Shown: positions 2,729 to 58,527, numbered from the whole stretch's first letter. The stretch is DNA of 63,081 bases, filler included, from Reclinomonas americana ATCC 50394 (GCA_048213135.1; 29 parts of 29 records of this genome joined end to end with filler, not necessarily neighbours in it), one strand, 5' to 3'. Notes: generated from the letters alone by a model not told the origin. Numbers and translations are program-made.

Positions 2729-4586
2729 ATGGCTTCATCCTCTGGCTCCGTCTCCGCCGCAGCTGGCGGCAGCAAGGCCTCGGCGCAGGACCTGGTGGAG
2801 CGCATCGACGCGGCCATCCTCTCGCGCATGGCCACCAGCCCCGACGGCCGCCTGACCTCCACGCTGGCCTTGGCCGCTGAGATGGGCCTCGACCACGTCG
2901 CCGATGTCACACCGGTCAGTGCATGCAAATCAACGAGGGGCGCGGGGGTGGGGAAAAAGTGCGTGACATGTCGCCTGTTTGTTGTCGTTGTCGTGCACAG
3001 CGCGTGATCAGTCTCGAGAGCGAGGACTATGTCAGCAAGACAGTGGTCAGCTCCGTGCAGATGCGAGTTGCGTTTGCATGGTCATTCTCGCGCGCTGTGT
3101 GTGCCTGTGCGTGACATGTCCACTCTCTCTCTCTCACACAGGTGACTCCTCTGCTTGATGCCTTCCTGCGTCACGGCACGCCAGAGCACGTGCTCGTCAG
3201 TCAGTTGCCTCCAGTGGGCGAGTTTGTCAACAAGGACGAGTTTGGTGCGCGTGCTGCAGCGCACTTGGAGGAGCTCGGCCTCGGAGATGCAAAGGTGTGT
3301 GTGTGGGTGGTCGTCGTGTTTGATCATTTCCTCACAGTCACTAATGGATGCATGCGTGTGTGTGCATGCAGAGCTTCAACAATACCTTTGGCAAGGCCAT
3401 GGCCAACAAGTGGGTTGTGTCGGAGAAGCGAGGCAAGGATGTGTTTGTGGCGCGCGCTGCGGTGAGTGTGATTCTGTCTTGCATGCCAACAGACGAGCAG
3501 TTGGGTGACTGTTTTTGGTGGCAAGCAGGAGGCGATCTCTGCGGATCCAATGGTGCCGGTGATGCTGGCGTTCAGGGAGAACCCGGCGTCGGTGTCGGAT
3601 AAGGAGGTGCAGATGTTGAAGACGAGAGGATTGGTGCAGGCGGTGTTGCGTGCAAAAATGACAACTCGCGTCGGTGACCGGTGAGGCGGTATGTGACTGA
3701 TGCTGGTGTTGCTGCCGTGCAGTACCATCAAGGACTTTTCGTTGGAGAAGGGTGTGAGTTGGCGGCCAGCGCGTGTGCGCATGGAGACGGAGATCACCGA
3801 TGAGATGCTGGCGTCGTTGCGTCTCGTCATTCTCTGCGTGCAGTTGTTGCTGTTGTGCGCTGCTTTTTCACACTGCGTTTGGCGCTTGCAGTGGAGCATG
3901 GGCAACTACGTCGTTCAAGAAGGTCAACCTGAACGCTCGTGGACGGAGTGTGGAGGGTGGTCTGTTGCACCCGCTGCTGAAGGTCCGCACGGACATTCGC
4001 AACATTTTGCTGCAAATGGGGTTCGTGGTGCACGTCGGTGGAGGGTCATGTGTTTCGTGAATTATCACCAACGTGCATGAATGTGGTGTAGTTTTGAGGA
4101 GATGCCGACGAATCGCTTCGTGGAGGCTGCGTTCTGGAACTTTGATTCGCTCTTCCAGCCGCAGCAGCACCCGGCTCGCGATCTGCACGACACTTTCTAC
4201 ATTTCAGGTGCGTGGACTAGTCGTTCTCTCTCAACTCCCACTTTGAGAGACTTATGTACGGTGATGGTGTCGCAGATCCACCGGCTGCCGCCTTCTTGCC
4301 ACCCGACTACGTGGAGCGTGTGCGCACCGTGCACGAGGTTGGTGGACACGGGTCCATTGGCTACCGGTACAACTGGTCTGAGGACGAGGCTCGGCGTCTC
4401 TTGCTGCGAACGCACACAACCGCTGTGTCGTCACGTGTGCTGAATGAGCTGGCGGCGGAGCCGGTGTTCCGACCACGCAAGTTCTTCTCGATTGATCGTG
4501 TGTTCCGCAATGAGGACATGGATGCCACACACTTGTGCGAGTTCCACCAGATCGAGGGCATGGTCGTCGATCGCAACCTGTCCTTG
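2729..4586 (+). CDS. FARSA: Eukaryotic cytosolic phenylalanyl-tRNA synthetase alpha subunit, 9 exons seen, 3'-partial
   Basis: Spliced GT-AG exons give [54 protein letters not shown] and [25 protein letters not shown]. Donors at 2915, 3067, 3295, 3462, 3645, 3816, 4021, 4208, 4587. Confidence 0.95.
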
Positions 4587-4697
4587 GTTTGTCGTCANNN
4601 NNNNNNNNNNNNNNNNNNNNNNNNNNNNNNNNNNNNNNNNNTTAATTAATTAANNNNNNNNNNNNNNNNNNNNNNNNNNNNNNNNNNNNNNNNNNNN

Positions 4698-6944: not shown

Positions 6945-7044
6945 NNNNNNNNNNNNNNNNNNNNNNNNNNNNNNNNNNNNNNNNNNNNTTAATTAATTAA
7001 NNNNNNNNNNNNNNNNNNNNNNNNNNNNNNNNNNNNNNNNNNNN

Positions 7045-8926: not shown

Positions 8927-8981
8927 TCGCTCCCCGCGCGTTGAGGTACGGACTTGCTGCTCCGTCTTGTGCACGCCCGCC

Positions 8982-9387: not shown

Positions 9388-10662
9388 GAAATGGGTGCCG
9401 ACCGTGTTGACGATCAACCCACCCGTTCCTTGCACGAACACGGCGCCGCCGCCCGCATTGCCTGCCGACGCTGCTGTGTTGCCCGACCCTACAACCGTGT
9501 TGCCAGAGAACACGCTGTCTTGGAAGGTGACAGTGGCATCGGCGGCAAGGTTGACCAACGACATGGCGGCTCCAGAGGCATCGTCACCGACCTTGGTGCA
9601 AGCGTGCCACGTCGAACCCGAAACTTGAACGACCGAGAAGGGACCGGAGGCGAGTACGGCAGAGGACTGCGTGCCACGTGCGGCAGCGCGATGGTCCACA
9701 AACTGCGAGTTGGTGACGGTGAGGGAGGCGGTGGAGGTGGAGGGTAGGGCAGTGGCATCCAGCCGCAGGGCGCCCGCCGTGGAGCCTGTGAACAGGCAGT
9801 TGGAGATCACGACTTGCGGCGACACGGTGGTGACCAACGCGCTCCACGAGACCGCCGGCTGACCACCCGTCACGGTGAGGCCAGTCATTTCGAAACGCGG
9901 CGAGTCCTGGACAAGGATGGGAAATGCTGACGCTTGCAAGATGGGCGATGACGATGGCGACGCGGACTGGAGAGTGATGTTGCGACCTGCAAAAGGTGGT
10001 GTTAGATCCTTTGATACCTGCCCGGCCTTCATCTCTATACCCATGTAGTGTAACTCTACAAGCTGTTCTCTGCCCCCCTCATCTCTTGGCTCCTAACCCT
10101 TGCTCTGTTGCTTGCCCCGTCATCCGATCACCAGGGTACACACCTTGTGACCGGCATTGACGAAAGTCGAGAAGGGACCAACAGTGGTCGAAAGTGAGAG
10201 CGACACATAATCAAAGGTGGTGGCATCAACCAATAGGAGTCTTAAGTGTACCTTCCGGAGTTTTCAATCGCAGTGTGTGCATGTGTGCAATATGTGCGCA
10301 TGTATGCGTGTCTTTCTAATTCACTTTCTGCGTATCTCTTGGTTGCCTGTCACGCTGCTGTCTCATTTCGAGCGCGCACTTTCTCACTCTCACTCTCTCG
10401 GTTGCTCGCTCTCTCTCTCTCTCTCTGTTGTGTGCCGCTATGTGTGTGGATGAGAGAGAGAGAGAGAGAGAATGAGCGGAGAGTGACAGGCGTCAAAGAT
10501 ACACAGAGAGAGTGAGAGAGTGAACGTTAACGAGCAATATCAAGAGAAAGAGCGAGCTCGAAAACGAGACAGCAGAGTGAACTAGAAGAAAAGGAGAACG
10601 ACGCGCCTACGCAATGAACACACATACACACGCACAGAGAGAGAAAGATAGAGAAGGAGACC

Positions 10663-13068: not shown

Positions 13069-13167
13069 AGATGGGATCCCCTTTCAGTTCGTTGCGCGGC
13101 GCCCGACGCCTGATGCGAGGGCTCTCTTTATCCGCGGCCGATCAAACGGCAACCTGAAGAGTCTACC
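13069..13167 (-). promoter_or_regulatory. rpsO promoter (-10 TAGACT) and putative S15 autoregulatory leader RNA
   Basis: Minus strand reads GGTAGACTCTTCAGGTTGCCGTTTGATCGGCCGCGG...GCGCCGCGCAACGAACTGAAAGGGG. The complementary CCGCG/CGCGG segments fit the structured rpsO leaders known in Actinobacteria. Confidence 0.55.
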
Positions 13168-13254
13168 AGCCGCGGACTCCCCCGAGTGACACGGCCCCGG
13201 CGTGCACCCGTCGACGCTCGGATAGTCTCGGATGGTGCAGATGAGAGCCTTCGA

Positions 13255-13960
13255 GTGAGCGCAGCGCGCGGACACCTGATCGACCTCACCCCGCTGAAGT
13301 CCAGCCCGGCGTTCGCCCGGATGTGGATCGGGTCGACCCTCGCCGGCATCGGCGGGCAGCTCACCATCGTCACCGTGATGCTGCACGTCTTCGCGCTCAC
13401 CCAGAGCACGTTCGCCGTCTCCATGATCGCCGCCGCCGGGCTTCTCCCCATGATCTTCGCCGGCCTGTACGGCGGGATGCTCGCCGACGCCTTCGATCGG
13501 CGCCGCGTCGCTCTCATCGCGGCCACCGTGACCTTCGCCGCCACGGGGCTGCTCGCGACGCTCACCTGGACCGGGAACGAGACGATCTGGTGGCTGTACG
13601 TCCTGAGCATCGTCATCTCGGCGGCGAACTCGGTGGGCATGGCGACGCGCACGGCGATCGTGCCGCGCCTCATCCCGCGGAACATGCTGGCCGCGGCATC
13701 CGCCCTGAACGGCGTGGCCTTCGGTGTCACGGTGATGGCCGGCCCGGCGGTGGCCGGAGTCCTCGTGGCGCTCACCGGCTACGGCTGGACCTACACGATC
13801 GACGTGATCCTGATGCTGTCGATGTTCCTCGGCCTGTGGACGCTGCCCGCGCTCCGCCCCGAGGGCGACATCGTTCGTCCGGGGCTGGCATCCCTTGTCG
13901 ACGGCTGGCGGTTCCTCCGCAGCGCGAGCAACATCCGGATGCAGTACGTCATCGACATCA
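13255..13960 (+). CDS. MFS transporter (EntS/MFS_3-like), 3'-partial; start uncertain
   Basis: LIDLTPLK.SPAFARMW and motif A GGMLADAFDRRRV, with TM helices. Divergent from rpsO. Confidence 0.88.
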
Positions 13961-16712: not shown

Positions 16713-16731
16713 CATGGGAGAATGGTCTTCC

Positions 16732-18616
16732 ATGGAGACCCCTGACGAGAAGCCCGCCGCACGCTCCGAAGGACCACCGCCGGGAACGGGCATCGTCCCG
16801 ACCGCGAAGAAGATCGTCCGCGACATCGCCGCGGTTCCGCCGCGCAGCGTGCACCCGGCGCTCGTGCCCGGCGTCTCGGTCGAGGAGACCGGCCGCTCGT
16901 ACCGCACGGATCCGCTCGTCTTCGGCATCGCGGTCGCTCTGACCGTCGCCTTCATCGCCTGGGGGGTGTTCGCGGGCGACAACCTCGCCGGAACCACCCG
17001 GACCGTCCTCGACGCCGTCGTCGAGTACACCGGCTTCTTCTTCACGACCATCGCCACGGTCATCCTGGTGTTCATGCTCTTCATCGGCTTCAGCCGCTAC
17101 GGTCGCATCCCGCTCGGCCGCGACGACGAAGAGCCCGAATTCTCGATGTTCTCGTGGATCTCGATGCTGTTCGCGGCCGGCATGGGCATCGGGCTCGTGT
17201 TCTGGGGCGCGGCCGAGCCCCTCACCTTCTTCGAGAACCCGCCGCCTGGAACCGTCGAGGCGAACACCCTCGAGGCGATGCACACCGCGCAGGCGCAGGT
17301 GCTCTACCACTGGGGTCCGCAGGCCTGGGCCTTCTACGCGCTCGTCGGAGGGGCCATCGCCTACGGCGCCTTCCGCCGCGGCCGCACCCCGCTCATCTCC
17401 TCGATCTTCGCGCCGCTCCTCGGCGAGCACCGCACCACGGGACCCCTCGGCCGCACGATCGATGTCTTCTCGATCATCGTGACGCTGTTCGGCACCGCGG
17501 CATCCCTCGGGCTCGGCGCCCTGCAGATCGGGCACGGCGTCGAGATCGTCACCGGGATCGGCGAGCTGGGCAACGGCATCCTGATCGCGGCGATCGCCGT
17601 GCTGACCGCCTGCTTCATCGCGTCGGCGGTCTCGGGCGTCTCCAAGGGCATCCGCGCGCTGTCGAACATCAACGCGGTCGCCGCGCTCATCCTGGCGTTC
17701 TTCGTGTTCTTCGTCGGTCCGACGCTGCTCATCCTCAACGTGATCCCGTCGGTCGCGGTGCAGTTCCTCGGCGATCTGCCGACGATGATCGCCCGCTCGG
17801 CCTCGCAGGGTGACGAAGCCCAGACGTTCCTGTCGACCTGGACGATCTTCTACTGGGCGTGGTGGATCTCGTGGTCGCCGTTCGTCGGCATGTTCATCGC
17901 GAAGATCTCGCGCGGACGCTCCCTCCGCCAGTTCGTTTCGGTCGTCATCGTCGTGCCCTCGGCCATCTCGCTGGTGTGGTTCTCGATCTTCGGCACGACG
18001 GCCATCCAGCAGCAGATGGACGGTGCCGGACTGAACGTCGACCCGCCGGAGGAGGTGCTCTTCGGCGTGCTCGGGAACCTCCCGTTCCCGCTGGTCACCA
18101 GCATCCTGCTCATCTTGCTGATCTCGATCTTCTTCATCACCGGCGCGGACTCCGCCTCGCTGGTGATGGGCACGCTGTCGCAGCAGGGTCGACCTGAGCC
18201 CGCGCGCTGGGTGACGGTCATCTGGGGCGTGCTGGTCGGTGTGATCGCCGCGGTGCTGCTCATCTCGGGTGAGGAGGGGAGCGGACTCCGCTCACTGCAG
18301 AACGTGACGATCATCGCCGCGCTCCCCTTCGCGGTGATCATGGCATTCATGATGGTCGCGTTCATGAAGGATCTGCGGCGCGATCCGCTGATCCTCCGCG
18401 ACCGCTACGCCCGGATGGCCGTGCGGCACAGCGTCATGGCCGGACTCGAGGAGTACGGCGACGACTTCGCCCTCGTGCCGGTCGAGTACGACCACTCCGA
18501 GGACGACCTCGCCTGGATCGACGAGGACTCGGTCGACGACACCCTCGCCGAGGTCTACGAGGCCGCCACCGAGGCGATCGACATCATCCCCGTCGAGGCG
18601 GATGCCGAACCGGATC
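16732..18616 (+). CDS. BCCT-family (betaine/choline/carnitine) transporter with acidic C-tail, 3'-partial
   Basis: SWISMLFAAGMGIGLVFWGAAEP, HWG..AWAFY and WTIFYWAWWISWSPFVGMFIAKISRGR signatures. Confidence 0.95.
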
Positions 18617-19625: not shown

Positions 19626-20246
19626 TCTGGAGGAATGCAGGCAACTGGAACCCGCACCGCAGCGGAAGCGCGTTCTGCGTCACCCAATCGTGAATAAACC
19701 GATCATGATCACGTGCACGTGGTTCCTTACCGTACTATTCGAGTTATTTAAGTTTCTGTTGTCTCGATTCTCTGCACTACGTGATACGTTTATTACAGGA
19801 GGAATGGGTTGCACATAGTTGGTTACGTTAAATGCAACATTTTCCATGCCAGATTCGCCGCACAACAAACTCCGTAAATTTGGGTTTCGCACATTCGCGA
19901 CACTCTTCTCTACTCTACCTCGCTGCGACAGAACTGCGTGGTAATTCACACACAGTGCGAGTCTCTTCAGATACTGGTGAGTGCTTCAGCTTTGCATCTT
20001 GTACACGTCGTCGTGCAGCAGCTGGTACAGTCGTCGTGCACGTGAGCAGCACACGATACATGCGCCGGCCCACTTCGTACCCACTCACGCCTTTCTCTCT
20101 CTCTCACACACACACACACATACACATAATGTCACCCACCATTCGCTCGAGCCATTCGGGTTCGCGAGAAGTACATGTGCATTGTCAGCACACGTTCGCC
20201 CCGTTTTCGCGCGCTTTAAATTTTCCAGCGGTCTTACCGCGCGTGC

Positions 20247-20283
<37 letters not shown>

Positions 20284-20311
20284 TGTGTGGCAGTGCTTGA
20301 CGTAAACTACA

Positions 20312-20940
20312 ATGACAACTTCGACCAGCGTGCTTGTGGCACTGGTGCTGGCGCTGGTGTGCGCTTCGGCGCTTGTTCACGCTCACGACTCGTCCATCAG
20401 CGTCCGTTGCGTTTTTTTGCATGCACATGACGGTGGTCATGCATTCTCTTTCCCTGTAGCCTCATCGTGACTGACGACGACTGCTAAACACCAGGTGGAG
20501 GGACCACATGTGCGGCACCGACTGCCGCAACTGCTCACGAGTCGAAGCGCATTTGGTGGTCGGTGGCCTCCAACGCCGACGGCAGCAAGCTGGTGGCCGT
20601 CGTCGAGTTCGGCCGCATCTACACCTCCACCGACTCGGGTGCGACATGGACGCCGCGCGACACGAATCGCTACTGGGTCAGTGTGGCCTCCAGCACCGAC
20701 GGCACCAAGCTGGTGGCCTGTGTCTACTGCAACGGCAACATCTACACCTCCACCGACTCGGGCGCGACGTGGACGCCGCGCGCTTCCACGCAAGCGTGGT
20801 CGGCGGTGGCCTCCAGCGCTGACGGCACCAAGCTGGTGGCAGTGGCCGTGGGTGACTCCATCTACACCTCCACTGATTCCGGTGTGTCGTGGACGCCGCG
20901 CGATTCTCATCGCCAGTGGGTTGCTGTGGCCTCCAGCGCT
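20312..20940 (+). CDS. N-terminal part of a paralogous secreted beta-propeller repeat protein (signal-peptide exon 20312-20405, intron 20406-20494)
   Basis: MTTSTSVLVALVLALVCASALVHA. The phase-1 GTTGCGT...CCAG intron joins in frame to about 40-aa repeats W.SVASSADGTKLVA...IYTSTDSGATWTPR. Confidence 0.8.
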
Positions 20941-21208: not shown

Positions 21209-23205
21209 AGCAGGAGCACTCTGCTCCGATCCCGCCGACTGCGAATCTGCATCGCGATGTGGTGCCTGCGTTGCCCAAGGCGGCAAACCTTGCGCCTGCG
21301 CATGTGACCTCTTTGGAGCACTATCACGAAATGTATCGTCGTTCCATTGAGCAGCCGGAGGAGTTCTGGAGTGAGCAGGCCTCGCAGTTCTACTGGAAGC
21401 AGCCGTGGAACAAGGTCGATTCTCATATGCTGTGTTTGTGTGCGGTGACGTGTGTGATAGTCGGTGCTGAGTGTGCCCCGCGTCAGGTTCTGTCGCACAA
21501 CTTTGATGTGCGTCAGGGACCGATCAACATTCGCTGGTTCGAGGGTGCGACGACCAACTTGTGCTACAACTGTGTGGATCGCCACTTGGAGAAGCACGGC
21601 GATACGGTGCGCCTGAGAGAGGGAGGGAGAGAGAGAGAGAGAGGAACAGGCAAGCGTTGTCCGTCTAATAATGTTATGCAGACGGCCTTCTTCTGGGAGG
21701 GCAACGACGGCGAGAGTCGCCAGATGACGTACCGTGAGCTGCACGAGCAGGTGTGCCGCTTCGCCAATGTGCTGCGCGCGCAAGGCGTGAAGAAGGGCGA
21801 CCGTGTGGCCGTGTATATGCCGATGGTGCCGGAGCTGCCGGTCATTGTTGCGTTGCATTGGTGGCATTTTTTCTCTTCTTTTTTCGGCCCTCATCTCACC
21901 GCTTTGTCGACACAGCTGCTGGCCTGCGCTCGGTGGGTCACTGTTGAGCTGCATGCGTGTGCGCCGTGAGCGACTCACTTTTCTTTTGCGTGGGCAGTAT
22001 CGGTGCTCCGCACTCGGTGGTGTTTGGCGGCTTTGCGCCGGACTCCCTCGCCGGTCGCATCTCCAATGCCGGGGTACGTGTGTGTGTGGTCGTCTGTCGT
22101 GTGCTGCATAGTGCATGAGTTGACAAGGCCCGTGCGCAGGCCAAGGTGTTGGTGACTGCCGACGGGTGCAACCGCGGTGACAAGGTACGATGCATCATCT
22201 CCGTTGCGGAATCCTGATCTCGACTCAAATGATGCATCGATGATGGCACACGTGTGCAGAAAGTTCACCTGAAGCAGATCGCCGATGAGGCCATGGACAT
22301 TGCGGCGAAGCGCGGTGATGTTGTGGACAAGTGCATCGTGTTCCGTCGGTTCGTGTGTGTGTGGGTCCACATGTCGTTCCTCTTTAACGCAAGTGACATG
22401 CTCTCGTTGCAGCCACCCGAACGATCCGTCGTTCAAGATCAACATGAAGAGCGGTCGCGATCTCGAGTGGTCAACGGAGATGAGCAAGGCATCGACGGAC
22501 TGCCCGGTGGAGTGGGTCGACAGCGAGCATCCTCTCTTTGTGCTGGTGTGTGGTTTTGCAAGAGAGAGAGAGAGAGAGAGAGCAACAATATGGACTCATT
22601 TGTGTGGAATACTGCCACTCGCGCGCAGTACACTTCGGGCTCCACTGGTGGGTCTCCGGCAGCGCTCTGCCCACTTTTGCTTATGCGCGCCAACTAACTC
22701 GGTCTCCTTGCAGGTGCGCCCAAGGGTGTCGTCCACACCACTGGTGGCTGTTGCGTTGATGCACGTGGGTGCATTTGTGCGAGTGCATGCCGCAAGCTCA
22801 CGTCTGCATCACAGACATGGTGTGGACGTCCTCGACGTGGAAGTGGACGTTCGATTACCACCCCGGCGAGACGTTCTTCTGCACTGCCGACATTGGATGG
22901 TGCGTGAGGCTGAAAGGAAGACACGATCCATGCATACTCGTGGTTGACTGTGCGTGTAATGCAGGGTTGCCGGTCACTCGTTCATGGTGCGACTCGGATG
23001 AGCCGCTGTGGTGTTGCTCGTTGTGGTGTGCGCGCTGACAGAGTTCGCATTCTAGGTGTATGGACCGCTGAACAACCGCGCCACGCAAGTGCTGTTTGAG
23101 GGCGTCCCGGTGCACCCAGGTGTGTTGAATGTGCATGTATACATGCAAGAGGGCGTACAGTGACTGACTCGTGTGTGTGAGACAGGGCCCGATCGCCTCT
23201 GGAAC
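21209..23205 (+). CDS. ACS: Acetyl-CoA synthetase (AMP-forming), eukaryotic, at least 14 introns, partial
   Basis: WFEGATTNLCYNCVDRH, GVKKGDRVAVYMPM, ACARIGAPHSVVFGGF, YTSGSTGAPKGVVHTTGGY and CTADIGWVAGHS after splicing. Confidence 0.93.
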
Positions 23206-23360: not shown

Positions 23361-25146
23361 CCATTTACGATCCGCGGGCGGTGGTGGCGCGCCTCGGAGG
23401 CCGTGCTCCGCGGACCTACCAGTCGTTTCTCAATACTGTGGCGGTGAGCGGTGATGCTGCCTTCTGGAAACGCTTCTGTGCAGCAGTCTGAGTTTGTTTG
23501 CTGGCAGTCACTGCCGGGCCCCGGAGAACCACTGCCTGTGCCACCGTCGCCGTTTCCACCGACGTGCGACACCATCACCGACGACATGTTTGTCGTGCCG
23601 AGTCGCCTCAGTGATTTGCACGGCCACTTGCACGACTTGCCCGACGACGAGCACCCTCCGTTCTTCGGGGGAGAAGTTGCGTGTGTGTCTTCGCAGTTGT
23701 CTTCGCTCCGAGCCTCTCACAACTGCCAGCAGACTGCTGCACTGGCGCGCCTGCGAGCGGCCGTGGAGGAGCGGCCGGCGTGGACGGCCACGTTTGAGAA
23801 GCCACAGACCTCGCCGACTGAGGTAGTGCCGGTTGGCGTCCGCGACATGATTCTGCCGGCAACTACGGTACTCAGCCCCTACCTCAAGTTCGGGTGCATC
23901 TCTCCGCGGACGGTGAGCTCCTCTCTCCACGCTCCTCGGCACGTACATTCTCTCTCACACGATATGTTTCTACTTGACAGGTGTGGATGGCCGTGGACAA
24001 GGCGGCCGCCAAGAGTGGCAAGAAGCGATCACAGCCACCCGTGAGTCTGCACGGGCAGCTGCTGTGGCGCGAGTTCTTCTACACCGTCGCCTGGGACACC
24101 AAAGATTTTCACCAGATGGTTGCGTTGCAGATCTAGAGTGAGCACCACCGCACTCACCGTTTGATATCCGTGATGACTTGAGGGCGCACAGGAGGGCAAC
24201 GAGTTGTGCATCCAAATTCCGTGGCAGGCCGACGAAGAACGGCTGAGTGCGTGGCGCGAGGCTCGCACTGGCTACCCGTGGATCGATGCCTGCATGACAC
24301 AGTTGCGACAGATTGGTGAGTCTCACCGATGGTCGCCAGGTGCGATCGCGCGAGTGCTGACATTGACGAGCAATCGCTGCCGGGCAGGCTGGTTGCATCA
24401 CCTGGCTCGTCACGCTGTCGCCTGCTTCCTCACTCGCGGCGATTTGTGGGTATCGTGGGAGGAGGGCGCCAAGGTGTTTGACGAGTTGCTTCTCGACGCC
24501 GACTACTCTATCAACACCGGAAACTGGCTGTGGCTCAGCGCGTCTGCCTTTTTCCATCAGTTTCATCGCGTCTACAGCCCCGTGGGTGCGTGTGTACGTG
24601 TACCACCTACCCATCCACACGCACCTGGTCGCTGATTTCCTGCAACGTACACAGCGTTTCCGAAAAAGACCGACCCAGATGGCAATTTCGTGCGCCACGT
24701 TGCGTACGGATCGCACAGGGCACCGATCGCTCTCTATCGTCTCACTTGCACTCGTTCACAGTACTTGCCGGTCCTGCGCAAGCTGCCGAGTCGTTACATT
24801 TACGAACCGTGGAAGGCACCGCGAAGTGTGCAGGAGGCGGCTGGCTGCGTCGTCGGGCGTGATTACCCGGCGCCCATCATCGACCACGACACGGCGATGA
24901 AGGAGAACCTTGAACGCATGAAGGCCGCATACGCCAGGAATCGCCAGCTGAAGACCAAGAGGTACGCGTGCAGTGGTGCCACTGTATTCTGCTGCTGCTG
25001 CGCGTGCGGTGTGACTCGAGTTGTGCAGAGTGGCAGGCGGTCACATCGACGATGACGATGGTGCGGGCATGGAGCCGTCAACGAAACGCGCCAAGACTGC
25101 CAAGACCAAGGCCACCACGACCGCGACCAAGAAGAATAGCAAGTGA
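23361..25146 (+). CDS. (6-4) photolyase / animal-type cryptochrome, spliced, 5'-partial, with a basic C-terminal extension
   Basis: [67 protein letters not shown] and [20 protein letters not shown] at 25144-25146. Confidence 0.93.
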
Positions 25147-27555: not shown

Positions 27556-28340
27556 TCAAATCGTCTCGCCAGGCTTGCACATCGGCGAGCGGGTGGCCAC
27601 CATACCGCCACGCAGTCCCGTCTTGAGGAAGGGCGCATTCTGTGCTCGTGTAAGCTCACCCCACTTGGTGCTGCCGTCGGGCTTGCGATTGGCGGCGGCC
27701 TCACTGTGCAATTCAAGAAGAAAAAAAAAGGCAGCGGTATGAGTGGTGGGAAGGACATGGGGTGAGCTGTGTGGGAAGAGACGCAACATGGCGGCACGTC
27801 GCAGCTGCTCCTCCTCGAAAGACACTTGAGCAGTCGTCTTGTACGGATCAAACTCGGCAATTTCTGTCCACTCTCTCTGTGCGCGCGCGCGCGATGATGA
27901 GCAACAGTTGAGGAGCGGGGGCGGGGGCGGAGGGCGCAACTCTCTTCTTCTCCAGTGTTTGTGTGCGCAGAGGCGAGTCCACAGGCGCTGGTGGGCGGAA
28001 TCAAGGAGGGTGAGAGACAGGCAGGCGGCAGTGCAGTGGCAGGCGAGGTAGGCATGTACCATCGAGGGCGAGGGAAGGGCGCACGTTGCGATCAATCGTC
28101 AGCTCCTTCAGGCTGACATGGCTCGTGGCCTCGACGTCGTGCCCGTGGCCAAACAGTTGCTCACGGGGCATGTCTGCAGGGGTGGAGGAGGAGGTGGTCA
28201 ACAAACTGCATTCCCTGATTCCGTTCCCAGTCGGACTCACCAGTGGCCGGCTCAATGTGCGCACGCAGTGACGTGCCCTGCGACAGGTCCTGGTACTTGT
28301 TGGTGAAGTCGACCTTGGCCGTCGTCATCATCGCCTGTGG
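27556..28340 (-). CDS. Small spliced eukaryotic protein, possibly a ciliary microtubule-inner protein (CFAP107-like)
   Basis: GT-AG exons give MMTTAKVDF..., DMPREQLFGHG..., DPYKTTAQVSF and ..KTGLRGG. The family call rests only on the LFGHG and YxTT motifs. Confidence 0.4.
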
Positions 28341-34139: not shown

Positions 34140-35771
34140 TCACCCAGGCTCACCGCTGCCGTCCCCTTCATCACCATCGTCATCATCGCCGCCACCTCGG
34201 TCGTCCTCCGAGTGACTAAAGTGATCTCGCAGGTCTCCGGCGTCGCTACTAAAAGCACGCTTTCGCGAACCGTTGCCAAAGCTGCCAGGCTCCTCGCCAT
34301 CGCCATCACCCTCAGCCTCGTCATCCTCGTCGGCGACCGCATACTCATCATCATCGTCCTCTTCATCGTCGTCGTCATCTTCGCCGTCGACTTCGTCCGC
34401 AAAGCCGGCGCTGAAACTTGAATTCTTTCGGCGCGGTCGCGACGATCGTCGCATGGGGACACCAGATCGCGCTTGCAACAGTCGCGCAAAGAAGGATTCT
34501 GTGTGACAACAACTGATGTCAATAACCACGCGTGGGTCGATTATGTGGCGATCAGTCTCTCTCCACTCACCATCCACCATGCCGGCGCCAAAATCAATCG
34601 GCTGCGATGGCGGCGGGCACAGACTCGGCAGCATCTGGCACATGAGGTCGACCATCACCTGCTGCTCGATTGCTGCATCGCAGAAGCACGAGGTGAGCAA
34701 CATTTAAAAACATGCACCTACGGCGGCACGACACACAAAGTTACGCAACTCGGCAACTCAGTGACTCGACGGAAGAACTCGAATCCAGCGCGAATGCGCT
34801 GTCCCGGCGACAAGCGCGCCGGTCCTGAACCGAATGACTGCAGCAGAGAAGCTGCACGACGGACACACGAGATGAGCACGGTCACACACCAGATGAAAGA
34901 AGCCTCTTGCAGACATCCACCCACCTCGGCTGTCGTCCTCGTGCATACTCGGCAGGCTACTGATGCTTCCGTGACGACCACGGTCGGCGTTGACAAAGTG
35001 TGCCGCCTTTTGCGCCTGTGCAATTCCTGGGTAGGCGGCAGCACTCGCACTGACAGGAGCCGGCGGTGGTGGTGGTGGATGTGGCAGCGGGAGCGCTGCC
35101 GGCGACGTCGTGTTCTGCGGATACCCGTAGAATCCGCCAGCTGCCGCACTCATGTCGCTGTTCATGACGGGCGGCAATGGCGGGGCCGAGGGCGGCGGTC
35201 CAGTAATCGGTGGGCCCACAAATGTGCCCGGGCTGTGATTGGTCGCAAACGGCATGCCACCGCCGACAAACTGCGGCGCGCCGGCCATTGGCAGCGGCGA
35301 CACCCCAGGCGACGTACTTGACATGTTGGGCGGTCCACCAGCGCCACCGGCCATCACTGGCATACTGTACACTGGCGAATGCGCGGGTCCGCCCATCTGA
35401 CTTGTGCCAGACGACGACGAATACATCGTCGACATTCTCGGCCCGCGCGTCGATTCCTGCGCACGAGGTGGTGTGAGAACGCAATATGATAGAGAGGCGA
35501 GAAAGGGGTGTGAAACGCACCTCCTCCAGCAGCCGCCGTTTCATATTCTTGGTGACGTACACGTGCTCTTGGTCCTCCTCTGTGGCAGGGAAAGGGAAGT
35601 GAGCAACAAAATAACCAAGGGATATCATCAGAACTCTCTCCCAACGCAACTGTCCGGCACACGCGCATAGATTTCGTACTCGGGGGAGTAGCACATCGCA
35701 ATCGCGGGCTCGTGCAGCGCACCATTGACGTCGACGCAGAACAGAGTGAGGCAGAACTTGAATCGCGGCTT
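34140..35771 (-). CDS. Eukaryotic hypothetical protein, 3' part: beta-rich domain end, Pro/Gly-rich region, acidic tail; possibly a transcription factor
   Basis: Spliced exons give KPRFKFCLTLFCVDVNGALHEPAIAMCYSPEYEIYARVPD|KEDQEHVYVTKNMKRRLLEE, then a Pro-rich region and a D/E-rich tail ending in TGA at 34140. Confidence 0.5.
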
Positions 35772-38164: not shown

Positions 38165-40357
38165 CGTGACGGAGAAGGCGACCTGCGGGAAGTACTGGCG
38201 GCCGGGGAGGAGGCCAGAGAGGGTGACCTGCCAGCCGTCGAGGTGAGCAGTGGCGGGCTGGTTGCTGTTGGCCGTGGTGGTGAGGCCCGAGGCGACGGAG
38301 ACACCGCGCACGTTGGCAGTGCCAGTGGCGGTGAAGCCGTAGACGCTGGCAGCCGACGAGGCGTTGACGTTGGCCTGGTTGGCAGTGTATGACGCACCGG
38401 CAGCGGTCAGAGTGATGACGAAGGTCAGCGAGGTGTCGGTGATGTCGATGACGGTGATCGCGTTGGCGGCGGTGAGGGCACCAGCATTGCTGCCGGCACC
38501 GGTGGGGACGACACCAGCACCGTTGGAGGCGACGACGTTGGCAGCGCAGCAGTACAGCTGCACGGCGGTACCACCGCTGACCAGAGTCCAGTTCACGCCA
38601 ACAGTGGCGGTGGCAGATGGAGCCGAGCGAACAGCCACCACAAACTTGGCAGCAGACAACACGGTGGACGAGGTGGTGCCGTCGAGGTACTGGAAGTCAG
38701 TGACAGCCGCGCCGTTGCTGGCGGCGTTTGTGCCGGCAAAGAATCCAACTGCATTGACGCCGCCAACGTTCGTGCCAGTGGCGGCAGTCGCCACCACACC
38801 ACGCTGAGTCGGCGAGCCGACGTTCAGCACCACAAAGTTGTTGCCGACAGTGACGAAGCCGTTGACGTCGGTCACGGCAGTGCCGGAGCGGTTGAACCAG
38901 ACGGCGTTGGTGGGCGCAGTCACAGCAAGAGAAGTGACGAACACGATGTTGGAGCTGACAGTTCCACTGGTGGCGTTCGTCGCCACAAGCGTCACCGTAC
39001 CGGCAGCGGTGGCATTGAAGGTCACAGTGCCAGTGAGGTCGCTCGCGCCCATCGACACGGTGCCGGTGGCACCAGCGACGTTGTTGGGGTTGCCGAAAGT
39101 GTACGGAGTCGCACCAAAGCCACCGTTGCCGATGACCGTGGCAGCAGTCGTGTTGGCCAGGCAGTTGATGGTGTTGCCACCAGTCACCGACCAGCAAGCC
39201 ACCAGAACCGGGGCAGTGCCGAGAGTCGGGTTGGCAGCAGCGCTGAGAGTGAGAGTCTGCTGCGAGGCAGTGTCGAGCGCAGCAGTGCCGTCGCCGTTGG
39301 CGTTCTGAGCGAGCACACGGACGCGGTACGTGGTGATGGCGGCACCGTTCTGGGTCGTCGTCAGCGCCGAGATCAAGACGTGGCCACCAGACACACGGCC
39401 AAAGGCCGTGTCAGTCACCGGCGTGCCCGTGGGAGTCGAGAAGGCGTTGTACAGCACACCGCCATTGTTAAACGCCGCAGTCTCCACCTTCCAGCCGGTG
39501 ATGGCACCGCCAGTCAGCTGAGGGGAAGTCCACGAGATGAGGCCGCCAGCCGAGGCCGCAGCCACAACAGTCGGCTGTCCGACCTTGTTCGGGGACTGCT
39601 TGCCGTCCTGGGTGGTCACCGTGGCGGTCTGCGAGAGAAGAGGAGAGGAGAGAAGGGTGGGGTGAGCAAGCTGCTTCGCACAGATACACACACAACATTT
39701 CACAAAGACAAAAAGACGCAACAGAGCTCCACGGGCCAAAGCCCCACTGGCCCACAGCGCGCGCGCGCACCACGTAGCCGGTGCTCGGCTGCAGGATGCT
39801 GGACGAGGAGGTGGCACCAGTGCCAGACACCACGCACGTCTGCTGCGAGAACGGGCCAGCACTGAACGGGATGATGGCCGCATTGGCGTTGTTGCCGTTG
39901 GTGGTCTCAGTGTAGAAGGTCACCGGAGTCCAGGCGGTCAGCGAGCTGCCAGTCGAGCTGCGGATCTGCACCTGGAAGAAGGGAGTCTGCAGCTGGTTGA
40001 AGTTGGCAACGTTGCCGGAGCCCGTGGCGCCAGTCTGGCCGAGCTTGATCGGCGGGTAGAACGACAGCACAAACGACGTGGCCGACGTGTAGCTGATGGC
40101 CAGGTTGGTCGGCTGGCGCGGGGTACCGCCGAGCGGCACCGTCACGACCTGCGACGAGGTGCGGACGCCCTCACCGTACGAGTTGACCGCGTAGGCCTGT
40201 TGGTGGTGGGAAAGAGGTGAGTGGGGAGGAGGAGGAGGAGGAGGAGGAGGGGGAGGAGAAGAGAAGGACGCAACGGCGATCGTGTACTGCACGCCCTCCT
40301 GGATGTTCTGGTCAAAGTAACGCAGAATCATGCCGTAGCAGCCGGCGCCGCCAGTGG
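38165..40357 (-). CDS. Large Thr/Ala/Asn-rich extracellular protein with fibronectin type III domains, internal spliced fragment
   Basis: FN3 motifs YTIAAYAVNSYGEG, LQPSTGYVVRARAVGQWGFGPWS, YRVRVLAQNANGDG and LSGLLPGRQY. Introns at about 39629-39728 and 40197-40274. Confidence 0.75.
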
Positions 40358-49573: not shown

Positions 49574-51600
49574 GCATCAGGCCGCCGACTTTCCAAGCCG
49601 AGCACACAAAGACGTCGCACACTGCAGTCAGCGCAAACAAATGTCAGGCACCGGGTGAGTGGAAATATGCACAACAGGTGGGGGGAACACACACCCATCG
49701 ATGGTCCGTCGCTGTACATCCACTTGTCCTGCTCGACCATGGACATGAGGGAGCCAAAGTCGAGGCCGCGCTTGTCCATCTCCGCGTAAATCTGCATGGT
49801 GGTGAGGTTCTGGCTGAGATTGCCAAAGAGGCGGAAGTTGAACGCCTCCTCCCACATCTGGTGCGATGTGGCCGGGCTAATGTGACTGTGTCGCGTTCAC
49901 CATCATCATCCAGTCAGTAATCGCCCCCACTGTGCGGGGGGAAGCGCATTCTGAGCACGAAACGACACGAGGCCCAGGAGGATCTGCAGCGTCTTCATGA
50001 TGAGCGGCGCCGGCAGGTTCTTGTCGGGCGTATCGATCCAGCCTGTGTGATAGGCACGAGCTTCGTTAGTCGACAGGGGCACATGGTCGCACAATCAACG
50101 CAAAAACAAACCACTGTGTTGGTCGACGGAGCGATTGAAGGAATGCAGTGGGTGAGCAGCGAGCAGCATACACACAAAACGAGGCACATGCTTGACGCAA
50201 CAAGAACTGCAGTGAGAGAGGGAGAGGGATATTGTCAGAAGCATACAAATCATGAACAAAAAACGAGCAAAAAAACGACTCACGTAATTGTGGAAACTGG
50301 GGGCAGCAGAATGCAAGAGCAAGAAAGTGAGAAGAGCAAGACAAAGATCATTCACCGGCGGAGCGAAAACAAATCACACACCCGTACGGCTGTAAGAGCG
50401 CAGCAGTCAGCACTCGAAGTGCAAAAGAGGACAAGGAATATCCCGCCTTGCCCTCACAACGTACCACTCCCTCGACCTCGTTCTTGAACCACTCCACCAC
50501 GGCGGTCTCGTTAAAGATCGCCCGCGATTCGGCCGACAGCGGCACGTGAATCACGTTCATGTCGGCGGCCTCGGCCAGCTGCAACCAGCGCTTGTAGGGG
50601 TGGCGCTGAATCTTGTTGTCGGGCCAGTACGAGGTGTTGCTCGTGCTCTCGACCACATTCAGCTCGCCGTCGATCCACAGCGCCATCGTAAAGTGGCCAG
50701 TGTGCGCGCCCGAGCCCCACGCCTCCACCGGACTGTGCGCAGAGCCGAGTTGGCATGTCTTATTAAAAGAATGCAAGTGGAGGGAAGGGCACGCAACTCG
50801 AGTCCGTCAAGACGCAGCACGCCAATCCAATCGCCCGAGTGAATCAGACTCTCGTCCAGCTCCACCTTGGTGATGGTGCGCTCCACCAGCGGGTAGTTGA
50901 CGTACTGATCGAGGAACTGTGCGACAACGATTTTTTGATGAGGACGAACTGCATTTGAATAATGAGAGAGAGAGAGGCAGACAGGGATGACGTACCTCGC
51001 GGTTCGCATCCATGATAATCTTGGGGACGCCGGGTCCCTCCGCCACACCCACAAAGAGCTCGGCGGTGGCAGCCAGAGTCTCGGCCATCTCCGCCTCGGT
51101 GCCCATGAAGCGCAGCACCGCCACACCGTGATTCTGCAACCACGTGTGATCGCCGGCCGACGCCTTCTTGCTCCACTCCCAGTGAATGACATGCTGTCCG
51201 TGCAGCGCAATCGTCTTCAAGTGGAAGCCCTCGCTGGTGGCCAGCAGGTAAAAGTCGCTGCAGAACGTGGACGTGGCCGAGCCGGCAGTGATGCTCAGCT
51301 CAAACCCGCCGTTATTCACATCGCGCCCGTCGTCGGGCATGGCGCTGCCGACCGTCAGGGTGGCGTTGTTCGACTTGAAGCAGGGCGTGGACCAGCTCAG
51401 AGTCTGCCCAGGCACCGCCCCGCCCAGGTACTCGGGAATGAATTGGTAGAAGCGGCCGGGCAGCGGAGTCTTTCTTGGCAATGAGCGACAACACACACGA
51501 TGAAAAATCAGTTGCACGAGTGACACACCGGAGATCCATCGGCCATGTGCAGCTTGCTGATAAAGTCGGCGACCTTGCGACGCTTCACCTCTGCGCGCAC
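49574..51600 (-). CDS. Permuted papain-like (NlpC/P60 superfamily) protein of the plant/protist At1g70160-like family, spliced, partial
   Basis: IHSGDWIGVLRLDGL, GAHTGHFTMALWIDGELNVVES, EG..YG, WIDTP..NLP and W.YSDGPSMVCDVFVC, with the His before the Cys (permuted order). Confidence 0.7.
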
Positions 51601-51656
51601 ATCGGAATCAGTGTCTGTCTAAAAAAATCACCCACTCTCCACAACAGCCCCCAAGT

Positions 51657-51711
<55 letters not shown>

Positions 51712-54121: not shown

Positions 54122-56225
54122 TGTCGACGATCAGGAGGGTGCGTTCCCCATCAAGGCCATTGACGAAAACTACCGAGTGCGATACCTGCCGCAGTACATC
54201 AACCCGATGAAGAGCATTCGCGGGCGTGCGTCACACTTACAGAAGCCACGATGCTGAGTGCTGGTGGATGCTGATCTGAACTCTGTGATTGTGGTTGTGT
54301 GCAGGTGCCCGCAATTACCGGGACCGTGACATTTTCCGCATGGTACGCATGATCCCGTGGCAGAAAGACAGCGAGATTTTCCGGAACCGCGACGATGTCT
54401 GGACGTCGCCGGAACACTTTTTGCAAATGTTGCGTCCGTTCTGCAGACTGCTGCTCTCTTCTCTCTCCCACCCGTGAGCGCTGATGATTTCCGCAGTTTG
54501 AAGGGCGACTCGGAGGATCATGCGATTCTGCTCATCAACTTTTTCATGCACGCCCACTTCAAGAAGGTGACGAGTGGACAGGAGAAAAAGAGAGTGTTGT
54601 GTGTACTGCGCTCTGCTCACGAGTGCGGCTGCCGTAGGACGTGTACCTCTGTGTGGGCAAGACGCGTCACGATGAGGATCACGTGTGGGTCATGGAACGC
54701 GATCGAGAAACAAGTGCCGTCCTCTTCTGGGAGTGTGCCAATGGCAAAATCTACCGGGTACGCCTTGTGCTCCTTGCGCACTGCTCGTGTGCCTTATCGT
54801 TCTCACTGTTTGTGGTGTCGTGTCACGCAGGTTGAGCGCGCCTATGCGCCAGACGAAGGTGAGCTGCTTGCGTCATTCGCTGCATGTTGTAATACAGTTC
54901 ATACTCTAACGCTTGATTCGATGGAGTAGGCGAGGTCGGGAGACTGGAGGTGGGCAGACCTCATTTGGTGTGCACTCGTTTGCTGCAGCATCCACTCACA
55001 CATGTTGCACTTCACAGGAACCCGAGTCGCCAATGGAGGCCGGTCCATCGGTTCGACTCTGTTGCTCGTTCTCTCTCCCCAACCGCAGCGTGCGGTGCAC
55101 TGACTGTTGGCATCTCACAGGGAGCGCAGTCGGAGGGCGAGGCAAACGAGACACATGTGGAGGTGGAGCTGCCGGAGCTGATGCCGGACGACACGTCGGC
55201 ACAAATCGATGTCACTCTTGCCACGCATGCTCAGTTCGATGTGGCGCCCGTCATGTGGTGCGTGCGTGCGTGCGTGCGTGCGTGCTGTGGTCGACCATGT
55301 GCTGCATGGAAAAACTGAAGTCGATTCGTGCATGTGTAGGACTGCGGATCAACTGCGAATGCACGGAGGCCTGGCGATGGGTGATGCGCTAGACCGGCAG
55401 CTGCCGTACAAGTCTATTGAGGTGGTCTTCAACAGAGAGAACATTTGGGCCAATCTGCAAGACATGTCACCGGCGGTGCGTCGCTGTCTGCTCAGCTCTT
55501 TCGTTTTTTGCGTGTTTGACACTCCACGACAGTCCATGCTCTACACCTTCACCGACGAGGATCGCTGGAGGCCGTACATGACACCCGAATTGCGTGCTCA
55601 GCTGGTGCGCGATCGCGAGTGCTGTCCCTATCGTCGCTTTCGCACTCACCCTGTCGAGATAGGGAGAGACGGCACCGGAAATCCTGGAGCCTTACTACCA
55701 GCAGGTGCGCATGCGACCAAAGATGTCGCAGCCGGTGCGCGACCGTTTCGAGAAACGCATCCGTTCTGAGCTCATGAGTTGCGTCGTGGTCCGTGCCTCT
55801 TTCCACCCCCACTTGCGTCACCAACTGTGACATTGCTCTCAGACCATTACATGCAACACCGATTCTATGAAAACCTCGGCGGCAAGGAACACAAGGGTCG
55901 CGAGCTGCAGCTGGTGCTGCGCAGAGGGCTGGAGATCTACGAGCGACTGCAGGTGTGTGTGTGTGTGCATGCGTATGTGTGCGCGTGTTGTGGGATACGC
56001 CTGCAGCACCCTGACTTGCGGCGGCGCAGGTAGAAGATCCTGTGCAGTTGCAACGGCGGAGTCGAGAACGCTCTGACATTTGGGAGGACTTGCGGCTGGT
56101 GCGAAAACAACTGCGTGCCATGGACCGGCCGGATGTGTCGCGTGCAGAGAAGAGGGAACTGATGAGCAAGGAGCGCAAGTTGACTGCGAAATTCAAGGAG
56201 GCCAGCAAGGAGATGAAGAACTTTG
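54122..56225 (+). CDS. CC2D2A/CEP76-family C-terminal transglutaminase-like region (centriole/transition zone), spliced fragment
   Basis: MVRMIPW, VWTSPEHFL.ILKGDSEDHAILLINFF, YLCVG....HVWVM, VLFWE...G..Y and IEVVFNRENIWANLQ. Confidence 0.8.
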
Positions 56226-56390
56226 GTTGCGTGCACTGCCTTTGATGGTAGTGGTGGTGGTGCTGGTGGTGTCGCGAGGTGGTGCTCATTNNNNNNNNNN
56301 NNNNNNNNNNNNNNNNNNNNNNNNNNNNNNNNNNTTAATTAATTAANNNNNNNNNNNNNNNNNNNNNNNNNNNNNNNNNNNNNNNNNNNN

Positions 56391-58527
56391 TTGCACGATG
56401 ACGAGACCGAATCGCTGACACCGCTGGGTCATGGTTGCGTCTGGCGTGTCTCCGTGTTGTTGTTGTTGGTGTGTCCGTATTCACCGCGTGCGCATGCAGT
56501 GCTCTCCCGTCTGCCCGTTGATCTCGAGCTTGGCAAGATGCTTGTGCTCGGCTCCTTGTTCCACCTGATCGACCCGCTGATGATCATTGCAGCTGCGCTC
56601 ACGGTGCAGAGCCCGTTTGTTCGCGTTCCCGAGGGCAATCACGAACTCATGGAGGTAAAGTGCATGCGCGCGCCAAACGTTCCGTTTGTTATCTGCTGTG
56701 CTGACAGACCAATGCAGGCCAAGCGCAGCTTCGACAGTGAGCATGGCGATCCCATCACGCTGCTCAACGTGTTCGACTCGTGGATCAAAGTCAAGAACGA
56801 GCGACAGGTCGGTGGTGCTTTGGTGTGTGGCGGGCGGCGCGCGTGTGTGTGACTGACGTGGACACAATGTGGACAGGGATCATCCCGGCGGTGGGCCACC
56901 AAGCACGCCCTGGAGGAGCAGCGATTGTACGAAATGGCCAAGCTGAAGCAGCAGTTCCGCGACATTCTGCTGGACTCGGGGCTCGTGAACAGGCAGACGT
57001 TGAGCGACTGGCGCACCCAACGCGGCATGGTGGTCGACGAGAAGCACCACTCGTACGAGCAGCATGATCGGCGCGAGGGGGGCGGCAGTCGAGGTGGTGG
57101 TCGTGGTCGGCGCTTTGATCGTCGCCAACAGCGCGGAGATGACGAGGGCGAGCGGGAGCCTGAGGCTGGTGGTGCAAGCGCGAGTGGCGTGGCGTCGTTG
57201 TCACGGCGAGAGAAGCGCGAGAAGCTTTTGGATTTGCAGCGGAAGCGAGAGCGATCCGGCCGCCGACTGCTGCGACTGGACGGAAGTGTGGAAGAAGAAG
57301 GTGCAGTGCGCATCTCGTGGAGTGATTTGCACTGCAGCTTTTTGCTGACCCGTTTGGCTTGATTTTGTCTTGAGCAGCTGCTTCGCGGGACATTGACATT
57401 CGGCACACGGAGTTCCTGCTGACTTGCGACGTGGAGGATCTGGTGGAGAGTGTGGCCAGTCGCGCCATGAGTCGCGAGGACGTCAATGTGCTGCGCTTCA
57501 TCCTCGCATCGGGGTTGTATCCAAACTTGGCCTTCCCCGACGAGTTCAACCTGCAACGACCACTCACCGAGCACACCTTCCACACCAAGTACAAATCATT
57601 CGTGTCGCTCCACCCCGGTAGCTCGCTGTATGGCCGTCCAGCTGTTGCGTGGGGCGGGCGTGGCGATAGCTTCTGTCGATGTTTTTCGGGGGTGATGTTC
57701 ACTCCTTTCCCCTGACACAGGCCTTGCAGCCAAACGAGGCTCTGTGCTATCAGAAGATCCTGGAGACCAACAAACCGTACCTGACGGGCGTGTTCCCGGT
57801 ACCAGCGGTGCATTTCTGTCTCCTGCTCGGACGCCAGCGTTGCGCACACCACGCTCGTTCCACCACTTGTCGTCGACCGTGTCTGATTGTTTTTTCTGTG
57901 CAGTGGACATGTCGGTGAATGGTCGACTGTTGGTTGGTACGTGACGCGTTTCTAACTCACGGATTATTGTGCTTGATGGCTCACCACAAAACTGCGATGC
58001 AGTGGACAACTGGGTGGAGCTCTCGTTTCCCAGCATTTCCACGGCCGAGACCACATTGACGGTGGTGTGCCAACTGCGACGCATGCTGGTCACCCTGCTG
58101 GAGCGCAAGTTGGTTGAGCACGTCCGTCGCTATCAACGTGCCTCCACCATTGCCGAGACATCAGCTGCAGCAGCAGCAGCAGCAGCGGCGGCGGCGGCAG
58201 TACAAACTGCGGCTGCCGAGGGTTCGGCGTCTGATGGCAGACCCGACGAACTGCCGGTCTTCCTCAGCCGCATTCGACAGGAGCACGCGCAGCCGTTGGA
58301 GTGCTCCACGCAAGCCGTCTCGCGTTGCGTCGCCTGAACGGTGTGCTGGACTTGGCATTGCGGTCGACTTACGCACACGATATCTCGCGCAGGTTTGCTC
58401 GCCGAGTTTATGGAGACGAACATCGAGTCCACGCTCAAGTGCCTCTCACATCTCGACGTGATCACCACATTCATTCCGGCCACGAGTGGTACCACCATGC
58501 GTGAACGGGCGACCAAGGCCTTGGAGG
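56391..58527 (+). CDS. DHX34: DEAH-box helicase DHX34-like, HA2/OB-fold C-terminal fragment (copy A)
   Basis: LTPLGHVLSRLPVDLELGKML, AAALTVQSPF, HGDPITLLNVFDSW, LEEQRLYEMAKLKQQF, SGLYPNLA and YQKILETNKPYL. Confidence 0.88.

Follow-up and report, generated by a model that had tools for sequence, protein, structure and literature searches.

On the prevailing view, splice donors are recognised through a nearly universal 5' end of the U1 small nuclear RNA (snRNA), and pairing in a shifted or bulged register is a rare exception. U12-type introns carry the 5' splice site RTATCCTT and a branch site TCCTTRAC near their 3' end, and 5' splice sites paired to U1 in a shifted (+1) register were reportedly described by Roca and Krainer in 2009. 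Here we analyse a 63,081-base stretch of joined contigs (hereafter the window, meaning the whole of the DNA analysed), in which many introns begin with the heptamer GTTGCGT, and we ask how this donor compares with the described ones. Validated non-canonical registers make up 1.5% of 201,541 human 5' splice sites, and the bulge at +2/+3 accounts for 54 curated predicted sites (PMC4856993, Table 3). Two main kinds of 5' splice site have been distinguished, AG//GUNNN, associated with U5 loop 1, and NN//GURAG, associated with the U6 ACAGA box (PMC11732430), and classes of 5' splice site have been linked to LUC7 paralogues (preprint 10.1101/2022.12.07.519539).

Spliced alignment of four conserved genes, namely acetyl-CoA synthetase (ACS), a (6-4) photolyase/cryptochrome, FARSA and the C-terminal part of a DHX34-like helicase, defines 31 introns, 11 of which begin with GTTGCG (hereafter variant donors) and 20 with other words (ordinary donors). 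Excision of the variant introns restores a continuous reading frame that is colinear with the homologues in all four genes, and the fit is exact in length, for instance PELPVI/LLACAR against PELAVAMLACAR in homologue P0001. A first-pass annotation of the same DNA had listed 21 coordinates at which introns would begin with GTTGCG(T), and had claimed that such donors are used mainly where the last exon base (position -1) is not G. The hexamer is present at all 21, followed by T at 20 of them (57839 reads GTTGCGC), the -1 bases are as the annotation gave them, non-G at 13 of 16 plus-strand sites, and the alignments bear out that the donors are real in conserved genes. The association with the exon base holds as well: G stands at -1 in two of the 11 verified variant donors versus 20 of the 20 others (Fisher 2.7e-6).

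The junctions were placed with a spliced protein-to-DNA aligner written for the purpose, which aligns locally with BLOSUM62, admits GT-AG and GC-AG introns and allows split codons. ACS was aligned to 30 of 120 retrieved homologues (every fourth), the photolyase/cryptochrome to 30 of 120 (length at least 480 residues), FARSA to 30 of 120 (at least 470 residues) and the DHX34-like C-terminal part to 46 of 150 representatives (at least 500 residues). Variant donors number three in FARSA, four in the DHX34-like gene and two in ACS, as first annotated, but the totals shift: FARSA has 8 to 9 donors (nine had been given), the DHX34-like gene eight instead of nine, and the ACS contig 13 introns instead of 14. 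That contig (21041-23260) is extremely dense in introns, which measure 58-83 nucleotides (nt) and interrupt about 1.06 kb of coding sequence; its exons include ones of 17, 19, 22 and 23 nt, and its acceptors are nearly always CAG. On the photolyase contig, four ordinary donors were also placed by alignment.

The window as a whole was covered with an ab initio gene finder, a Viterbi model of our own, whose donor model was self-learned from intron positions +1 to +8 only; exon position -1 was excluded from it, so that the -1 base is an independent read-out. A mixture fit with a background component splits the donors into a GTGnGT and a GTTGCGT component, and even under a flat donor model, in which any GT is accepted, GTTGCGT ranks first among the heptamers that open predicted introns, whichever of the three intron penalties is applied (7 to 12 introns out of 74 to 183). 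With the self-learned model, 30 of 30 verified introns are found again, and one false call falls within verified exons. In the whole window it predicts 119 introns, 22 of them variant, and when contig 27, a second copy of contig 26, is dropped, 19 of 112 (about 17%) are variant. Earlier versions of the finder, based on flat-donor self-training or on a three-component mixture, over-predicted, with 17 to 18 false calls inside verified exons, and a dicodon model trained on the four genes was over-fitted and was replaced.

Base counts in the window indicate that the variant is a strict word. Enrichment over background, which the first-pass annotation had proposed as a check on GTTGCG, is not found for the hexamer (68 seen and 60.2 in shuffles, 19 of 100 shuffles reaching 68) and is found for the heptamer GTTGCGT (32 seen, 12.8 expected). 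GTTGCG followed by A, C or G was seen 11, 14 and 11 times versus 14.1, 18.6 and 13.2 expected (binomial probability 4.6e-6). Of the 32 copies of the heptamer, 20 are called as donors by the gene finder; the other 12 include none in sense orientation in a predicted exon, where about 2.6 sense copies would be expected, and this deficit counts as weak evidence (P = 0.07). GTTGCGT alone is in clear excess among the sixteen GTTxyGT heptamers, and no single-substitution neighbour of it is enriched: GTTGAGT was seen once versus 8.9 expected, GTTACGT four times versus 2.5, and GTTAAGT not at all, while GTTGTGT (18 seen versus 10.4 expected) overlaps GT microsatellites and is never a predicted donor. 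The variant donors agree at +1 to +6 in 11 of 11 verified and 19 of 19 predicted cases, and at +7 in 10 of 11 and 18 of 19; the only two predicted ones without T at +7 are 57839 and its allelic copy at 59372. The ordinary class is diverse, with 21 occurrences of GGTGAGT, 17 of GGTGCGT and 12 of GGTACGT in the window. Because no neighbouring heptamer is enriched while the ordinary class is so diverse, the variant is best described as one word, and the proposal that GTTGCGT is GTGCGT plus one base, as if ordinary donors had each gained a nucleotide, was not upheld.

Polymorphism bears on the same junctions. Contigs 26 and 27 are alleles or recent paralogues. Three variant donors of contig 26 recur on contig 27, at 60776, 59567 and 59372, and these copies were absent from the first-pass list. 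The two copies differ in 56 columns; 26 of these, and all 8 indel columns, fall within the 462 nt of predicted introns, and 12 of the remaining differences lie in the last 21 nt of the contig. With that contig end excluded, the contrast between introns and exons has p = 5e-8. The copies differ by 5.6% in introns, and the opening 8 nt of every donor supported by homology are free of differences. It could be argued that the junctions are mis-modelled and that the true donors are nearby GT or non-GT sites, since our aligner and gene finder permit GT/GC-AG introns only and a one-base shift of both borders alters at most one residue. The exact-length fit to homologues, the enrichment of T at +7 in this heptamer only, the confinement of allelic indels to modelled introns and the emergence of the motif from a flat donor model all argue against such an artefact, which we regard as very improbable.

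The two classes differ at the donor and on its exon side. The plurality consensus of the 20 verified ordinary donors is G/GTGCGTG, with G at -1 in 20, G at +3 in 12, C at +4 in 10, G at +5 in 18 and T at +6 in 14. The invariant -1G of these donors (e.g. 21415, 22074, 24316, 56808) goes far beyond the usual preference; their +3 and +4 positions are loose, and sites such as GTCGAT and GTAAAG are included. When GTTGCGT is slid by one base, six of its seven positions agree with the local consensus G-GTGCGT. At -1 the variant has A or T in 13 of 19 predicted cases, resembling position -2 of the other donors (55 of 93; background 41%). Intron length is nearly the same (median 70 nt in variant and 69 nt in other introns), and CAG serves as acceptor in all 22 variant introns and in 85 of the 97 others.

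GTTGCGT marks a real, second type of donor in ordinary GT-AG introns. That it is read in a shifted register we hold with a confidence somewhat short of even, and its reader would probably be a shifted or altered contact with a U1-type RNA. Of the two registers put forward in the first-pass annotation, which had also suggested a variant U1 or U6 snRNA or a lineage-specific factor, the +1 register fits the statistics (the six-of-seven match and the loss of -1G) and the bulged one does not, as -1G is not kept. Machinery that prefers G/GTGCGT would read the variant one nucleotide out of register, the intron +1G taking the place of the exon -1G. The single mismatch (T for the second G) would be paid for by requiring the optimal TGCGT in the other positions, and cleavage would be fixed later by U6, U5 and Prp8, before the first GU of the recognised heptamer. 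The guide would be complementary to GGUGCGU or GUUGCGU, with a U1 5' end reading ...ACGCA(C/A)C... instead of the universal ...ACUUACC.... When the donors were folded, one by one, with the 11-mer printed in PMC4856993 as the universal U1 5' end, the ordinary ones gave -7.9 kcal/mol on average, and all of them paired in the canonical register. As this universal end pairs poorly with the variant in any register, an altered or variant U1 is predicted for the host. A search of the window with Rfam gave no match at gathering thresholds, and no snRNA among 23 weak matches at E up to 5.

Several observations weigh against recognition of GTTGCGT by a shifted register. Variant donors pair with the universal U1 5' end at a mean of only -1.1 kcal/mol and in no consistent register, although the host's own U1 may differ. 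A simple shift of the ordinary class predicts donors of the form GTTGAGT, GTTACGT and GTTGTGT, and GTTGAGT is strongly under-represented; as no neighbour of the heptamer is enriched, its strictness needs an extra assumption, either compensation or an altered guide. The Micromonas consensus is also AG/GTGCGT (PMC3879977), so that C at +4 is by itself no proof of an altered U1 and the prediction of one is not forced. At +8 the variant has no preference for G (four of 19), unlike the ordinary donors at +7 (49 of 93). In the predicted set, -1G is found in two of 19 variant donors and in only 63 of 93 others, where some calls are likely false or -1G is not absolute; the 30 non-G others probably include false calls, and we do not claim -1G as absolute genome-wide. 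An excess of a branch-like motif, considered below, is a slight sign that the variant forms a class apart instead of sharing the machinery of the ordinary donors. Finally, the junctions rest on homology, frame, polymorphism and our own gene finder, and the GT...AG dinucleotides were assumed by the aligner rather than discovered.

A bulged register on standard U1 would leave G+1 and U+2 paired, with one U (at +2 or +3) bulged and GCGU pairing like +3 to +6 of GUGCGU. It has in its favour that a one-nucleotide bulge at +2/+3 is an established register (PMC4856993, Figure 1C) and that the G+1:C8 pair is kept. Such a helix would be expected to favour -1G or to need it all the more, and the variant donors do not retain this preference, which is why we disfavour the bulge; moreover, duplex folding with the universal U1 5' end gave no stable bulged helix, and the bulge would favour GTTGAGT and GTTAAGT, which pair better with universal U1 than GTTGCGT does and yet were seen once and never. 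We think it quite improbable that the variant is read in this way.

The near invariance of seven positions, the lack of any enriched single-substitution neighbour and the negligible pairing with a universal U1 that suits the ordinary donors well would all be natural if the shifted register were replaced by a dedicated reader. Such a reader could be a second U1-like snRNA (e.g. a duplicated U1 with its 5' end changed to complement GUUGCGU) or a sequence-specific protein, perhaps acting with a YTCAC branch site, while ordinary donors stay on standard U1. A branch-like motif, YTCAC (in many cases TGCTCAC), lies no more than 45 nt from the acceptor in 13 of 19 variant versus 23 of 93 other introns (p = 7e-4, post hoc), a test framed after eight introns had been inspected; in the 11 variant introns not inspected beforehand it occurs in seven. 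Examples in the 3' parts of variant introns lie at 21895-21901, 34690-34700 and 40215-40225. The excess may reflect a coupling of donor class to branch site, and the variant intron cores (+9 to -6) are also slightly more alike, with a mean local score of 8.6 versus 7.6 among others. A dedicated reader leaves the six-of-seven likeness to the ordinary consensus unexplained unless it is itself a diverged U1, and the equal length and acceptor of the two classes and the presence of YTCAC in ordinary introns too (12 of 39 strict ones) do not favour it. We judge a dedicated reader unlikely, though by no means negligible, and the fuller proposal of a second guide, a U1-like snRNA complementary to GUUGCGU, together with a distinct YTCAC branch preference, making up a sequence-coded third class of intron, rather improbable. 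Pairing of intron ends of the kind known from Euglena showed no difference between the classes (-8.74 versus -8.84 kcal/mol), and neither of the U12-type motifs RTATCCTT and TCCTTRAC occurs in the intron sequences inspected.

The heptamer could also be an evolutionary footprint, the conserved end of young introns that have spread recently like introner elements. Micromonas introner families have typical donors of their own (PMC3879977), and the somewhat higher mutual score of the variant cores also speaks for a footprint. However, no extended similarity was found among variant introns beyond the heptamer, the top local score being 17 over about 60 nt, against 19 among the others, and the allelic copies, diverged as they are in introns, do not differ at the start of homology-supported donors. 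One variant intron is also old in position: the FARSA intron at 3645 coincides, in protein position and in phase, with introns of L001 and L009, distant eukaryote metagenome contigs with GTATGT and GTACGT donors, and this shared position leads us to conclude that some variant donors arose in place at old introns. The canonical FARSA intron at 4021 is likewise at a position common to two other sequences, L004 and L005. A footprint of this kind has, in our view, little probability, and recognition by a shifted register is retained as the preferred reading.

FARSA also gives an indication of the host. In a tree of 29 rows the window sequence stands beside the jakobid Seculamonas ecuadoriensis (support 95/79; identity 66 to 67.5%), and a further sequence joins the pair (99/98); coming from one gene and a thin sampling, this suggests a jakobid affinity as a lead only. 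Metagenome relatives of the FARSA exon were found at 21 loci, with a best identity of 67% and no close relative among them. The nuclear genome of the jakobid Andalucia godoyi, the only one to which searches for nuclear introns in jakobids led, is intron-poor (PMC7050145). A chlorarachniophyte with a genome of 27% GC and introns of 546 nt (PMC12730881) was rejected as the host.

The individual sites are collected in Table 1.

Table 1. Introns with GTTGCG donors, other sites of the motif and the second copy of the DHX34-like fragment, in window coordinates (a slash marks the donor border; homologue counts are those supporting the intron)
Coordinates	Strand	Feature	Length (nt)	Phase	Donor	Evidence and remarks
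3067..3141	+	FARSA intron	75	0	cga/GTTGCGT	weaker: 7/30 homologues, incl. best homologue P0121; ab initio
3645..3722	+	FARSA intron	78	2	ggt/GTTGCGT	28/30 homologues; ab initio
3816..3891	+	FARSA intron	76	2	gtc/GTTGCGT	29/30 homologues; ab initio
20406..20412	+	candidate donor after signal-peptide-like exon			GTTGCGT	plausible phase-1 join of signal peptide to repeat protein
21847..21915	+	ACS intron, followed by 17-nt exon	69		att/GTTGCGT	30/30 homologues; ab initio
22750..22814	+	ACS intron	65		gct/GTTGCGT	30/30 homologues; ab initio
23676..23732	+	(6-4) photolyase/cryptochrome intron	57		gaa/GTTGCGT	27/30 homologues; ab initio
24119..24191	+	photolyase intron	73		atg/GTTGCGT	30/30 homologues; ab initio
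24699..24761	+	photolyase intron	63		cac/GTTGCGT	28/30 homologues; ab initio
27781..27787	-	motif from first-pass list			GTTGCGT	ambiguous: several frames stay open; no ab initio call
34673..34749	-	intron, gene without name	77		cga/GTTGCGT	ab initio
35580..35650	-	intron, gene without name	71		aca/GTTGCGT	ab initio
39629..39722	-	intron, not in first-pass list	94		tct/GTTGCGT	ab initio
40197..40274	-	intron, gene with weak fn3 matches	78		gcc/GTTGCGT	ab initio
50114..50201	-	intron, not in first-pass list	88		ctt/GTTGCGT	ab initio
50733..50797	-	intron	65		cga/GTTGCGT	ab initio
54429..54496	+	CEP76-like intron	68		aat/GTTGCGT	ab initio only; flanking exons match Pfam CEPT76_peptidase
55778..55842	+	CEP76-like intron	65		tga/GTTGCGT	ab initio only
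56226..56232	+	motif 65 nt from contig end			GTTGCGT	sequence; acceptor would fall past contig
56434..56499	+	DHX34-like (C-terminal part) intron	66		atg/GTTGCGT	42/46 homologues; ab initio; 5 allelic differences incl. 3-nt indel
57644..57720	+	DHX34-like intron	77		gct/GTTGCGT	20/46 homologues (rival 57692-57729: 11/46); ab initio; allele comparison
57839..57903	+	DHX34-like intron	65		agc/GTTGCGC	27/46 homologues; ab initio
58324..58392	+	DHX34-like putative intron	69	1	cgc/GTTGCGT	weak: 6/46 homologues; frame kept open; 2 allelic differences
58656..60819	-	contig 27, DHX34-like fragment, reverse-oriented copy of contig 26 (56391-58555)				97.7% identical

The window does not represent a single locus. 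It consists of 29 contigs, each of about 1.1 to 2.3 kb, joined by linkers of the form N44-TTAATTAATTAA-N44 (e.g. 2250-2349), which account for 56 N runs of 44 bases, paired around the 12-mer TTAATTAATTAA. The contigs are ordered approximately by length, so that adjacent genes are without physical linkage, and the DHX34-like and CEP76-like genes each stand on their own contig. Several contigs are intronless and bacterial-looking: contig 0, with SBP_bac_5 (E 3e-71) and BPD_transp_1 (1-2249); contig 5, with MFS_3 (13161-13959); contig 7, with a BCCT transporter of 629 residues (16729-18615; E 6.5e-168); and contig 17, with a DDE transposase (37155-37691). They are likely contaminants of the assembly, or transfers. 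The remaining contigs are GC-rich eukaryotic DNA (about 55% GC) with very numerous, very short introns.

Microsatellites of the types (GA)n, (GT)n and (CT)n are very frequent within introns (e.g. 21620-21645, 22560-22585), and TCTCTCT, GAGAGAG and GTGTGTG reach counts of 148 to 246 as heptamers. A palindromic low-complexity stretch at 10374-10502, with weak two-strand matches to plant and animal microRNA models far under gathering scores, is probably a simple hairpin repeat. Contig 8 (18717-20940) contains a piece of a Cys-rich repeat protein (CGSDGCGGSCG...), and also a protein with repeated YTSTDSGATW (Asp-box-like) units that follows a signal-peptide-like exon ending at 20405.

Between a fifth and a third of the introns in this lineage seem to rely on a discrete and invariant heptamer with a shifted register, and all the others seem to need -1G. 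If so, the lineage offers a natural experiment on how the cleavage site is set independently of the first recognition helix, on the trade-off between exon-side and intron-side information, and on whether the U1 5' end can change. Gene finders trained on GTNNGT-type donors would get as many as one in three introns wrong in genomes of this kind, where exons can be as short as 17 nt. Should a dedicated guide be the true explanation, a deep-branching, jakobid-related eukaryote would possess a third class of intron, with a logic like that of the U2/U12 split but evolved independently. The first-pass annotation knew of no such consensus, and the literature searched (most subscription journals being outside its scope) likewise offered no description of GTTGCGT or GUUGCGU as a consensus for donors; the raw motif appears there mostly in primers, and among the matches listed none concerned splicing.

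Of the described systems, shifted (+1) register sites resemble the variant in that the introns are GT-AG, the intron-side letters fit the consensus one base downstream, and there is no dependence on -1G; the variant would also share with them a cut that remains at the GU although the helix of recognition is displaced by one base. The human sites are rare and atypical, whereas here the class takes in 11 of the 31 verified introns and 19 of the 112 predicted ones, with one fixed heptamer that pairs poorly with universal U1. With the +2/+3 bulge registers the variant has in common an extra U after the GU and then a consensus-like tail, but a bulge, found at 54 of 201,541 human sites, should keep the -1G preference that the variant class is without.

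The split between AG//GUNNN and NN//GURAG offers another parallel, with one class dependent on the exon (here through -1G) and one dependent on the intron and tolerant of any -1 base. The variant differs from //GURAG by having U at +3 followed by G and C at +4 and +5, by the invariance of seven positions and by forming a discrete class instead of one end of a continuum. Micromonas, too, is a GC-rich protist whose consensus is of the GTGCGT type and in which several intron classes occur side by side; its introners are defined by whole-intron similarity and novel positions, whereas in the window the heptamer alone is shared and one intron position is conserved. U12-type introns, lastly, resemble the variant in having a long, rigid 5' splice site motif with no exon preference beside degenerate major-class donors, and possibly in a coupled branch preference, but GTTGCGT is unrelated to RTATCCTT, and the variant introns have the length and the CAG acceptor of the other introns around them.

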